Sequence record: NC_054908.1
Length of the DNA: 64,000 nt
Reading direction: 5' to 3' (one strand)
DNA from: Escherichia phage vB_EcoM_DalCa
In this document: positions 35,895 through 38,049 of the stretch, piece after piece
Layout: the number at the start of each line of letters is the position of its first letter
Position numbering within the stretch: position 1 is the first letter of the stretch
The notes under the pieces: model-generated
Told to the model about the DNA's origin: nothing
Databases searched by the model: none
Seen by the model: only the letters and a program-made list of their open reading frames with translations
Made by a program: the position numbers and the translations under genes

Positions 35895-35932
35895 CTTATT
35901 TCCTGTTTTAATTTGTAGATTTAATATACTAA

Positions 35933-35940
35933 TATTTATA
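35933..35940 (-). promoter_or_regulatory. T4-type late promoter motif upstream of internal-protein-like gene 35421..35894
   Basis: Plus strand TATTTATA (TATAAATA on minus) about 40 nt upstream of the MKSYTQF start. Confidence 0.5.
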
Positions 35941-35941
35941 C

Positions 35942-35970
35942 CAAAAAGCCCCAACCTTTCGGTCGGGGCT
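35942..35970 (-). terminator. Intrinsic terminator (repeat copy 2) at 3' end of tRNA/small-RNA transcription unit
   Basis: Same 29-nt hairpin plus U5 as copy 1. Confidence 0.6.
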
Positions 35971-36277
35971 AAGCCTTGCGGCAACCTTGTCGGGGTTCCA
36001 CCTGCTAAGGCAAGTGTTTGTACGAAACGCCGGGATTCGAACCCGGTTATTAAGTAGTTGACGCTACTCAATATTTTTAAAAGGCCATATCTCGACCATA
36101 TCCGAACGTTCCGTCAAAAACGCTACTCGGCTTACGGCAAAGATATTTCCTCGAATCGATAATTCGGTGCGCCGTTTCTGCTGTGATAGTAAAGAGCCAG
36201 AACACAGTAAAACTGTGGGAGGAAACTATACTCCAGGGAACATCAGTCCGACGACTTACCGGTAGCGACCCGGTTTC
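35971..36277 (-). ncRNA. Candidate small stable RNA(s), analogous to T4 RNA C/RNA D (species 1 and 2), including a tRNA-like T-arm
   Basis: About 300 nt with no ORF of 60 aa or more between the tRNA-region ORF and a strong terminator; perfect T-arm-like hairpin CCGGG-TTCGAAT-CCCGG near 36030-36046 without a full cloverleaf; exact RNA ends not determinable by eye. Confidence 0.3.
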
Positions 36278-36628
36278 TTAATATTCTTTTAAAGAATCAA
36301 TATATTCACGGCGTTTACGCCACAAATCAATTGCTTCATACGCGGATTCAGCATTTCGAATTAGCCTGCATTTATGTAAAGACTTATGATTTTGATATTG
36401 TGTAGATAACGGAATTGTATCTAAAAGGTCTTTACGATCAAAATATTCGTAACCATCTAAACCAAATGAACGATTTTTGAGAAATTGCCAATGACCATAT
36501 TCGTTTTCGACATAAACATAATCTGCATGCTGATAAAGCAAATTAATTACACGTTCAGAAATAACAGTATCATTATGATTAAAATAGAATGTTAAATCAT
36601 GAACTACTAAATAAACATTACCTTTCAT
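36278..36628 (-). CDS. Hypothetical protein within tRNA region
   Basis: 116-aa ORF immediately downstream of tRNA-Arg. Confidence 0.5.
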   Translation of the reverse strand: MKGNVYLVVHDLTFYFNHNDTVISERVINLLYQHADYVYVENEYGHWQFLKNRSFGLDGYEYFDRKDLLDTIPLSTQYQNHKSLHKCRLIRNAESAYEAIDLWRKRREYIDSLKEY

Positions 36629-36646
36629 ATTTTCCTCACTTATAAT

Positions 36647-36722
36647 TGGTCGAGGCAGTAGGGATCGAACCTACGACCTAGGACTTAGAAGGTCCTTGCT
36701 CTTCCTTCTGAGCTATGCCCCG
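36647..36722 (-). tRNA. tRNA-Arg (anticodon UCU), CCA encoded
   Basis: Manual fold of reverse complement: 7-bp acceptor stem, anticodon arm AGGAC-CUUCUAA-GUCCU, T-arm GTAGG-TTCGATC-CCTAC; 76 nt. Confidence 0.8.
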
Positions 36723-36726
36723 TAAT

Positions 36727-36802
36727 TGGGGTGACCGATGGGAGTCGAACCCATGACTACGAGAATCACAATCTCGAGTTCTACCAACTGAACTACGGCC
36801 AC
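36727..36802 (-). tRNA. tRNA-His (anticodon GUG), CCA encoded
   Basis: Manual fold: D-stem GTTC/GAAC, anticodon arm CGAGA-UUGUGAU-UCUCG, T-arm ATGGG-TTCGACT-CCCAT, discriminator C; not part of the 8-tRNA T4 set. Confidence 0.75.
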
Positions 36803-36916
36803 ATTAATACCTACTCCAACAATCAAGATGTCTTCACACGAAATTAAGAGAAGAGTGATCAGTTCAACCCCTATAATCGCGTCAAGTAGATATTAATGTG
36901 ACAGTTGTCACAAATT

Positions 36917-36991
36917 TGGCGGACGTGATAGGATTCGAACCTATAACCAATCGCTTAACAGGCGATCGCTCTGCCATTGAGCTACACATCC
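36917..36991 (-). tRNA. tRNA-Asn (anticodon GUU), CCA encoded
   Basis: Manual fold: anticodon arm ATCGC-CUGUUAA-GCGAT, T-arm with GGTTCGAATCC; not part of the T4 set. Confidence 0.75.
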
Positions 36992-36995
36992 AAAT

Positions 36996-37082
36996 TGGTG
37001 GGGAGTGGTGGAGTCGAACCACCCGAGTCGCAATGACAATGGATTTACAGTCCACACCGCTACCTCTACGGGATAACTCCCC
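36996..37082 (-). tRNA. tRNA-Tyr (anticodon GUA), class II long variable arm, CCA encoded
   Basis: Manual fold: acceptor GGGGAGT/ACTCCCC, anticodon loop CUGUAAA, long variable arm, T-arm GGTGG-TTCGACT-CCACC; 87 nt; not part of the T4 set. Confidence 0.7.
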
Positions 37083-37091
37083 AAATTAATT

Positions 37092-37166
37092 TGGTGGCCC
37101 TGGGTGGAATTGAACCACCATCTGGCGATTATGAGTCGCTTGCTTGAACCTTCCAGCTACAGGGCC
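37092..37166 (-). tRNA. tRNA with anticodon CAU (Met or lysidine-modified Ile), CCA encoded
   Basis: Manual fold: acceptor GGCCCTG/CAGGGCC, anticodon loop CUCAUAA, T-arm GGTGG-TTCAATT-CCACC; cannot separate Met from Ile(LAU) by eye. Confidence 0.65.
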
Positions 37167-37167
37167 T

Positions 37168-37243
37168 TGGTGCTGATTGACGGAATCGAACCGCCGACCT
37201 TCTCATTACAAGTGAGTTGCTCTACCTACTGAGCTAAATCAGC
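37168..37243 (-). tRNA. tRNA-Thr (anticodon UGU), CCA encoded
   Basis: Manual fold: acceptor GCTGATT/AATCAGC, anticodon loop CUUGUAA, T-loop TTCGATT. Confidence 0.75.
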
Positions 37244-37248
37244 AAAAC

Positions 37249-37338
37249 TGGCGGAGGCGATAGGATTTGAACCTATGAGTCGCCGGAGCGACTGCCGGTT
37301 TTCAAGACCGGTGCATTAAACCACTCTGCCACGCCTCC
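37249..37338 (-). tRNA. tRNA-Ser (anticodon UGA), class II, CCA encoded
   Basis: Manual fold: acceptor GGAGGCG/CGCCTCC, anticodon arm CCGGT-CUUGAAA-ACCGG, long variable arm; 90 nt. Confidence 0.8.
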
Positions 37339-37340
37339 AG

Positions 37341-37414
37341 TCTCCGTGGCAGGATTTGAACCTACGACATTCTACTCCCAAAGCAGACGCTCTACCAAAC
37401 TGAGCTACACGGAG
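37341..37414 (-). tRNA. tRNA-Pro (anticodon UGG), CCA not encoded
   Basis: Manual fold: acceptor CTCCGTG/CACGGAG, anticodon loop UUUGGGA, T-loop TTCAAAT; 3' end abuts tRNA-Ser 5' end, consistent with the T4-type Pro-Ser dimeric precursor. Confidence 0.75.
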
Positions 37415-37424
37415 TAAATTAAAT

Positions 37425-37498
<74 letters not shown>

Positions 37499-37503
37499 AA
37501 ATT

Positions 37504-37590
37504 TGGTGCGAGAAGTGGGACTCGAACCCACAAGGAAATCATTCCGCAGCATTTTAAGTGCTGTGCCTTTACCAATTTGGCCATTCTCGC
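37504..37590 (-). tRNA. tRNA-Leu (anticodon UAA), class II, CCA encoded
   Basis: Manual fold: acceptor GCGAGAA/TTCTCGC, anticodon arm CAGCA-CUUAAAA-UGCUG, long variable arm; 87 nt. Confidence 0.8.
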
Positions 37591-37591
37591 G

Positions 37592-37664
37592 CTGGGAATA
37601 AAGGACTCGAACCTTTGCATCCTGGAATCAAAATCCAGTGCCTTACCAACTTGGCTAATTCCCA
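37592..37664 (-). tRNA. tRNA-Gln (anticodon UUG), CCA not encoded
   Basis: Manual fold: acceptor TGGGAAT/ATTCCCA (U1-A72), anticodon arm CTGGA-UUUUGAU-TCCAG, T-arm AAAGG-TTCGAGT-CCTTT; 3' end abuts tRNA-Leu as in the T4 Gln-Leu dimeric precursor. Confidence 0.75.
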
Positions 37665-37761: not shown

Positions 37762-38049
37762 TTACCATTTATAATAATACATATTTACGATGCATTCAAG
37801 ACCCAAAGGATTCTTGAAAATATCATATTCAAGAGGACCTTTTTCTGTTTCAATAAAGAAATCAAAATTTACTGTATTAAATTTACGTTCTTCCTTCACT
37901 AATTTAACTTGAGAAGATGAACGGTCAATGTAAACCTTTTCAACTTCAAAACATGTTAAAATGCCATAATCATCAATCAAAGCTTTAGCCGCGTCTTGAT
38001 CATATTTATATCCATTTTCAATGGATGATACTTTCGCATAAAGAATCAT
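37762..38049 (-). CDS. Hypothetical protein
   Basis: 95-aa ORF upstream of the tRNA cluster. Confidence 0.5.
   Translation of the reverse strand: MILYAKVSSIENGYKYDQDAAKALIDDYGILTCFEVEKVYIDRSSSQVKLVKEERKFNTVNFDFFIETEKGPLEYDIFKNPLGLECIVNMYYYKW

Follow-up and report, generated by a model that had tools for sequence, protein, structure and literature searches.

What is encoded by the roughly 300 nucleotides that separate an open reading frame from a strong terminator downstream of the tRNA genes of Escherichia phage vB_EcoM_DalCa? The window, by which we mean the whole stretch of 64,000 nt analysed here (NC_054908.1), is from a Tequatrovirus; over positions 35900-36700, its identity to the Escherichia phages Pinarejo and YUEEL01 is 99.9%, and this region also matches several hundred T-even-like records. 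The original prediction, made from the sequence alone, had drawn attention to a tRNA-like T-arm lacking a complete cloverleaf in 35971-36277, and had proposed either the counterpart of the species 1 and species 2 RNAs (C and D) of phage T4 or a degenerate tRNA. The two small stable RNAs of T4 have been known since the 1970s, and their function is among the oldest open questions on this phage. It was called unknown in a 2010 review (PMC3014915), in a 2022 omics study (PMC9697503), and again in a 2025 evolution study (PMC12685909). In the 2022 study, both T4 RNAs were classed as late RNAs, and accumulation of RNAC was validated by Northern blot, using a probe for RNAC only (PMC9697503). The tRNA region is dispensable for growth of T4 in laboratory hosts (PMC2330249).

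Eleven tRNA genes were located by ARAGORN on the minus strand of the window. In minus-strand order, they are followed by a 116-aa ORF (36628-36278), by homologues of T4 rnaD and rnaC, by a trailer and by the terminator:

38003-38010, minus strand: T4 late-promoter motif TATAAATA, upstream of the tRNA cluster, about 340 nt before the first tRNA
36647-37664, minus strand: eleven tRNA genes
36278-36628, minus strand: 116-aa ORF (351 nt), PHROG 3355, no Pfam match; T4 has nothing at this place
36166-36281, minus strand: rnaD (species 2 RNA homologue, T2-type), about 116 nt, aligning with T4 rnaD (NC_000866, 71053-71171)
36160-36165, minus strand: spacer GAAUUA between rnaD and rnaC; an equivalent AAUUA or AAUAA spacer occurs elsewhere
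36021-36159, minus strand: rnaC (species 1 RNA homologue), 139 nt, 138 of 139 bases identical to T4 rnaC over the full length
35971-36020, minus strand: conserved trailer CAAACACUUGCCUUAGCAGGUGGAACCCCGACAAGGUUGCCGCAAGGCUU, 50 nt with small hairpins, between rnaC and the terminator
35947-35970, minus strand: intrinsic terminator AGCCCCGACC-GAAA-GGUUGGGGCU followed by UUUUU, present in all aligned phages
35933-35940, minus strand: T4 late-promoter motif TATAAATA, directly after the terminator

The minus strand from 36281 to 35947 aligns with T4 rnaD, with rnaC, and then with the conserved trailer and the intrinsic terminator. On the same strand of T4 (NC_000866), tRNA-Arg is followed by the misc_RNA rnaD ("species 2 RNA", 119 nt) and then by the misc_RNA rnaC ("species 1 RNA", 139 nt); base-for-base alignment with these two features bore out the proposed correspondence, and the stretch occupies the corresponding position, with the tRNA cluster upstream and the terminator downstream. 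Order, strand and terminator of rnaD and rnaC in T4 are those of the window, whereas the centre of the T4-type rnaD differs from the T2/BW-1-type centre of the window, and T4 lacks the 116-aa ORF between tRNA-Arg and rnaD. While the first ~45 nt and the last ~30 nt of rnaD are near-identical to T4, the centre is replaced by a T2/BW-1-type module, with indels that are non-triplet. The layout of phage T2L, whose RNAs were termed "RNA species I and II", with tRNA-Met, Tyr, Asn and Arg and extra ORFs, matches that of the window (PMC2330249). Both RNAs share their strand with the eleven upstream tRNA genes, with a single intrinsic terminator downstream, which proved to be as strong as had been stated (10-bp stem, GAAA loop and T-run at 35970-35947). 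The RNA ends given for DalCa are presumptive, being taken over from the T4 annotation. With these ends, one boundary of the non-coding stretch had to be shifted: the RNA region starts at about 36281 instead of 36277, its first bases overlapping the TAA stop codon (36278-36280) of the PHROG 3355 ORF that sits between tRNA-Arg and rnaD.

Identity, structure and processing logic, considered jointly, make it highly probable that the stretch comprises the rnaD and rnaC of a T2/T4-type phage, followed by a conserved trailer and by the terminator that closes the tRNA operon. Both genes are already known, and their occurrence in a T4-like window is ordinary; new here are the structure of rnaC, the pairing of its loops, its 3' end (UCCA versus UACA), the structure and spread of rnaD, and the mapping of the BW-1 SNP. 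Rfam 15 holds no family for rnaC or rnaD, as judged from the window and seven homologous loci, where both stayed below all gathering thresholds; the searches of the seven loci returned tRNAs and noise only. The earlier statement that 35971-36277 is free of credible ORFs also stands, since the longest frames are a 42-aa GTG frame (36077-36205), which straddles the two separately annotated RNAs, and a TTG extension of the downstream gene. Protein coding was rejected on the grounds that ORFs in the stretch do not exceed 42 aa and are not conserved. The late-promoter motif at 35933-35940 would serve the downstream gene.

The 139 nt of rnaC fold with a minimum free energy of -50.2 kcal/mol (z = -4.56; none of 200 shuffled sequences folded equally well), and the minimum-energy fold is a four-way junction of acceptor-like stem, long hairpin, third arm and T-arm:

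36023-36029 and 36152-36158, minus strand: acceptor-like stem, 7 bp, 3' strand CGUUUCG and 5' strand CGAUUCG, then U-ACA
36082-36151 (rnaC 9-78), minus strand: long hairpin, 70 nt, with apical hexaloop UUGACG at 36112-36117; its stems covary
36048-36073 (rnaC 87-112), minus strand: third arm, 10-bp stem, with hexaloop CGUCAA at 36058-36063
36030-36046 (rnaC 114-130), minus strand: T-arm CCGGG-UUCGAAU-CCCGG, abutting the acceptor stem as in tRNA

The T-arm, from which the original prediction had started, is the sole match in the window at up to three mismatches, as compared to 0.02 matches expected by chance. An alignment of 23 rnaC sequences (alignment A5; 19 distinct) was compiled from the genera Tequatrovirus, Karamvirus, Gelderlandvirus, Kanagawavirus, Moonvirus and Marfavirus, from an unclassified straboviral Citrobacter phage, and from IMG/VR and metagenome contigs. 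The 42 pairs of the model are 97.6% paired in this alignment, versus 86.6% in shuffled and 36-49% in slid controls; 21 pairs show changes on both sides, and the observed values were reached in 0 of 500 shuffles. Covariation in the aligned sequences is evidence for a four-way junction whose acceptor stem and T-arm resemble those of tRNA. This structure is kept across genera, so that a lack of conserved structure among related phages, which had been named among the observations that would count against stable RNAs, was not encountered.

In the acceptor-like stem, C2-G8 pairs with C131-G137; the third pair is A-U in ten sequences and G-C in nine, and U5.U134 and U6.U133 form a tandem mismatch of which both positions are invariant in all sequences. 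The middle pair of the T-stem also covaries, being G-C in ten sequences and U-A in eight. All 23 homologues have a long hairpin of 70-71 nt, although the T4-type and the Melville-type hairpins are unalignable. Besides, a segment GAUUCGA near the 5' end of rnaC (36152-36158 region) is perfectly complementary to UCGAAUC in the T-loop (36034-36040). Of the seven bases in the 5' strand of the acceptor stem, this segment includes six, and alternative pairing of the two segments might be the reason for the invariant U.U mismatch in the acceptor stem.

Does this fold make rnaC a tRNA? In line with the incomplete cloverleaf noted in the original prediction, no tRNA can be called at 35971-36277, where ARAGORN reports neither tRNA nor tmRNA, and the Rfam tRNA model stays below threshold on the stretch, the only match being to tRNA-Sec with 17 bits and E = 2.2. 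Like a tRNA, rnaC has a 7-bp acceptor stem stacked on a 5-bp T-stem with a GUUCGAAUC loop, and the Marfavirus sequences have N-CCA; the T-arm loop conforms to GTTCRANYC. Unlike a tRNA, it is 139 nt long and has neither a D-arm nor a 5-bp anticodon stem with a 7-nt loop; in the consensus structure, these two arms give way to a hairpin of 70 nt and to an arm of 10 bp that ends in a 6-nt loop. Following the acceptor stem, Marfavirus encodes U-CCA, and T4 and the window encode U-ACA; most rnaC lineages have ACA in place of CCA. The Karamvirus phages PG7, fGh-Ecl04 and Pet-CM3-4 and the Gelderlandvirus Melville carry the gene within the tRNA array, flanked by tRNA-Trp and tRNA-Gly; in phage Ursula, it comes directly after tRNA-Trp. 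The spacers of rnaC in these arrays resemble inter-tRNA spacers, and in Karamvirus and Gelderlandvirus the AAUUA/AAUAA spacer also parts the CCA end of tRNA-Trp from rnaC, which in these genera behaves like one more tRNA gene. Given its position in the array, the tRNA-like spacers and the UCCA or UACA after the acceptor stem, rnaC looks like a tRNA gene with its decoding half replaced. Both its nature as a tRNA derivative and the replacement of the D and anticodon arms by the 70-nt hairpin and the 10-bp arm are well supported. The "degenerate tRNA" of the original prediction is thus apt as a description of origin, in view of the tRNA-like acceptor stem and T-arm, but not of decay, in view of the 21 pairs with compensatory changes.

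In the tRNA-like domain of tmRNA and in the bacterial Y-RNA-like YrlA, the acceptor/T-arm top half is kept and the decoding half is replaced by other helices. rnaC resembles these RNAs in both respects, but differs from them in that there is no sequence or covariance-model match; YrlA gave no match on rnaC, and a Ro-binding stem was not identified. A tmRNA was rejected, as neither ARAGORN nor Rfam reports one and rnaC has no mRNA-like region. In GenBank, part of rnaC is annotated as a 95-nt "tRNA-Met" in PG7 (L002, 1554-1648), and a "tRNA-Lys" is annotated over part of rnaC in vB_EcoM_G4507 (our matches H37 and H186 concern such annotations). In most other records, rnaC is unannotated or lies under hypothetical proteins.

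The two hexaloops of rnaC, UUGACG and CGUCAA, are exact reverse complements, and the six loop-loop pairs are 100% paired in the 19 distinct sequences. The apical loop UUGACG is kept even in long hairpins of unalignable type. In the Marfavirus clade (P545, HMGUkp2 and the metagenome sequence L032), the loops read UUGGCG and CGCCAA, a double change from A-U to G-C. This loop-loop covariation amounts to one event in one clade of three sequences, both loops being invariant in the other genera, and such invariance is neither proof nor disproof of pairing. Pattern scans of IMG/VR and metagenome data yielded no more than 11 and 10 loci, respectively, and those scans in which neither loop was specified brought up only sequences with both loops. 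When further loop covariation was sought in four more GenBank genera, all were found to keep UUGACG/CGUCAA, leaving Marfavirus as the sole covarying clade. The one covariation event, the joint invariance and the fixed arm length make a 6-bp kissing helix between the hexaloops likely. It could form within one molecule or between molecules, as both arrangements are compatible with the evidence; we think that a head-to-tail dimer would be less strained than the folding back of a hairpin of about 30 bp.

TAR-TAR* and ColE1 RNA I/II are fully paired hexaloop kissing complexes. rnaC likewise has two perfectly complementary six-nucleotide hairpin loops, but, in contrast to these systems, it carries both loops in one molecule. 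A reading of TTGACG as the -35 element of a promoter was rejected, because inspection of the sequence revealed no properly spaced -10 element.

Twelve sequences were aligned for rnaD (alignment A4). The consensus consists of a 5' hairpin and, after it, a variable centre enclosed by a long, interrupted helix; the latter comprises the pairing of GUCGUCG with CGGCGC and then two more helices. The 22 pairs are 92.8% paired, versus 32-48% in slid controls, and 14 of them show changes on both sides, so the comparative evidence supports the rnaD fold by covariation. The features referred to below are:

36258-36274, minus strand: rnaD 5' hairpin ACCGG-GUCGCUA-CCGGU, helix 1 of the alignment
36203-36217, minus strand: rnaD apical hairpin CACAGU-UUU-ACUGUG, with G 36205 at the position of the BW-1 SNP
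L003, 1497-1612 (phage PsgM04F), and L004, 1493-1597: rnaD homologues in other phage groups

The 5' hairpin covaries, with UCGGG/CCCGA in W70 and CAGGG/CCCUG in PsgM04F. A segment pair CUGAUG ... GAAAC in rnaD suggested a hammerhead ribozyme or a k-turn, and both were rejected on topology, core mismatches and loss of the motifs. There is no stem I, only 3 nt lie between the would-be cleavage site and CUGA, A9 of the hammerhead core is replaced by U or G, and no Rfam hammerhead match was obtained at E <= 10; in PS49 and KpV477 the motifs are absent and the segments covary as a plain helix.

The centre of rnaD occurs in at least four interchangeable types. In two other phage groups, rnaD directly follows a tRNA 3' end, namely in Vequintavirinae (W70, A73) and in a minority of Phapecoctavirus (PsgM04F, BI-EHEC), whereas Phapecoctavirus relatives such as phAPEC8 do not have it. 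The interchangeable centres and this patchy occurrence suggest that rnaD has been transferred horizontally among the tRNA arrays of unrelated coliphages. Dhakavirus JS10 possesses rnaD but not rnaC, and the two RNAs are therefore separate modules. Just upstream of rnaD in PsgM04F (L003, about 1420-1497), we noted an unannotated tRNA-like sequence with a T-arm (GGACUUG...GAGUCCCA), on which the Rfam tRNA model makes no call; about 59 nt of the region upstream of rnaD are common to many Phapecoctavirus genomes.

Across the region, phage BW-1 and the window share 98% identity. The sole SNP common to three lines of BW-1 evolved on the semi-permissive host ECOR34 is T>C at OR125554.1:164264 (PMC12685909). 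On the RNA strand, this is an A>G change in the apical hairpin of rnaD (L034, position 315), which converts the ancestral C.A mismatch to the C-G pair already present in the window and lowers the predicted hairpin energy from -0.7 to -6.0 kcal/mol. The restoration of a pair is a point not made in the passages of that study consulted here. The SNP is a hint that the apical hairpin of rnaD contributes to fitness; its repair was selected three times on a semi-permissive host.

Ten phages, among them JS10, which has no rnaC, show a near-invariant trailer (ACUUGCC..GCAGGUGGAACCCCGACAAGG) ahead of the terminator. The first hairpin of this trailer shows one compensatory swap, from G-C to A-U, in L033, and trailer and terminator fold with z = -3.9. 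Together, they could constitute a third, terminator-bearing small RNA.

How the RNAs arise can be proposed from their setting. rnaD and rnaC would be excised from the tRNA precursor by host tRNA-processing enzymes; the acceptor/T-arm minihelix of rnaC would be the substrate of RNase P, and an endonuclease would cut in the AAUUA spacers, after which the 3' end would be trimmed. The compact folds would then render both RNAs stable, so that they accumulate. The 5' end of rnaD in T4 may stem from tRNA 3' processing; in the window, it cannot, because a 351-nt ORF lies between tRNA-Arg and rnaD.

As to function, we tentatively favor the possibility that rnaC imitates the top half of a tRNA, as a mimic or decoy directed at a host factor by which tRNA acceptor ends are recognized. 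Without an anticodon, rnaC cannot decode, and it keeps the part that end-directed enzymes recognize; processing enzymes, repair enzymes and tRNA-targeting defence toxins would be candidate targets. It is solely the shape of rnaC that suggests such a decoy. rnaD, as a module in its own right, would influence growth on certain hosts. An elaborate version, to which we give little credence, has rnaC as a self-associating top-half mimic: the loops would pair intermolecularly, head to tail, to give a closed dimer of two rigid coaxial rods that displays an acceptor/T-arm minihelix at each end and titrates a host factor directed at tRNA ends, such as a tRNA-targeting defence toxin. As for rnaD, this version sees in it a host-range module of phage tRNA arrays that is independent and moves horizontally. 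RNAduplex, applied to the whole molecules of rnaD, rnaC and the trailer, returned only forced duplexes, which were uninformative.

The main rival, which we regard as rather unlikely, is that rnaC and rnaD act only in cis, as processing or stability modules of the tRNA operon whose accumulation is a by-product; they would provide entry sites for RNase P and RNase E, and structured 3' ends that shield the tRNA precursor from exonucleases. Such a role agrees with the fact that the RNAs are always found within or at the end of tRNA arrays, with the AAUUA spacers, similar to inter-tRNA ones, that flank both, and with their location in the window and in T4, past the last tRNA but ahead of the terminator. 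It is weakened by the mid-array position of rnaC in Karamvirus, Gelderlandvirus and Ursula, where a 3' cap is needless, and by the elaborate invariant features of rnaC, since a cap requires neither invariant complementary hexaloops nor a hairpin fixed at 70-71 nt nor an invariant U.U tandem; moreover, in the window the 116-aa ORF parts rnaD from the tRNAs.

That the RNAs are trans-acting regulators, using conserved unpaired segments to base-pair with mRNAs of host or phage, appears improbable. The RNAs of T4 are abundant late RNAs (PMC9697503), invariant unpaired segments do exist (e.g. UCCCUG in rnaD and the A-rich linker of rnaC), and trailer plus terminator resembles a terminator-bearing small RNA. 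However, the best-conserved rnaC loops have their complement in one another and not in an outside target, and no trans-acting small RNA had been characterized in T4 (PMC3014915). BLAST searches of 5,426 E. coli genomes, which are blind to seeds of 7-12 nt, found no match at E <= 1, and a host homologue or long antisense target was rejected on this basis.

Covariation contradicts the remaining explanations, which we consider scarcely tenable. That the RNAs are decaying, functionless tRNA pseudogenes would account for a T-arm and acceptor stem without a cloverleaf and for ACA where CCA would be in most lineages, but 21 compensatory pairs and 97.6% pairing across at least six genera reveal selection for RNA structure, too strong for rnaC to be a decaying pseudogene, and rnaC is identical at 138 of 139 positions between T4 and the window while the adjoining rnaD centre has been replaced. 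A short protein gene, for which the 42-aa GTG frame would be the candidate, or a DNA-only role such as that of a homing-endonuclease target, conceivable as SegB cuts T-arm DNA in tRNA genes (PMC2330249), is equally far-fetched, because the substitutions follow compensatory RNA pairing and not codons, the indels in the rnaD centre are non-triplet, the frame runs across two RNAs, and selection at the DNA level would not keep G.U pairs on one strand only.

If, as we tentatively propose, the RNAs are decoys for tRNA-directed host factors, rnaC and rnaD would join the phage tRNA genes in the contest over the host tRNA pool. What interest is left resides in the structural model and in the mapping of the SNP, both of which render an old T4 question more amenable to experiment; the comparative model provides features that can be mutated, namely the top half with its U.U tandem, the complementary hexaloops, the fixed-length hairpin and the apical hairpin of rnaD. 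Within the tRNA array of the window, the 114-nt spacer between tRNA-Asn and tRNA-His (36803-36916, minus strand) has a predicted folding energy of -32.7 kcal/mol (z = -4.4 versus shuffled sequence) and might be another structured RNA of the array.
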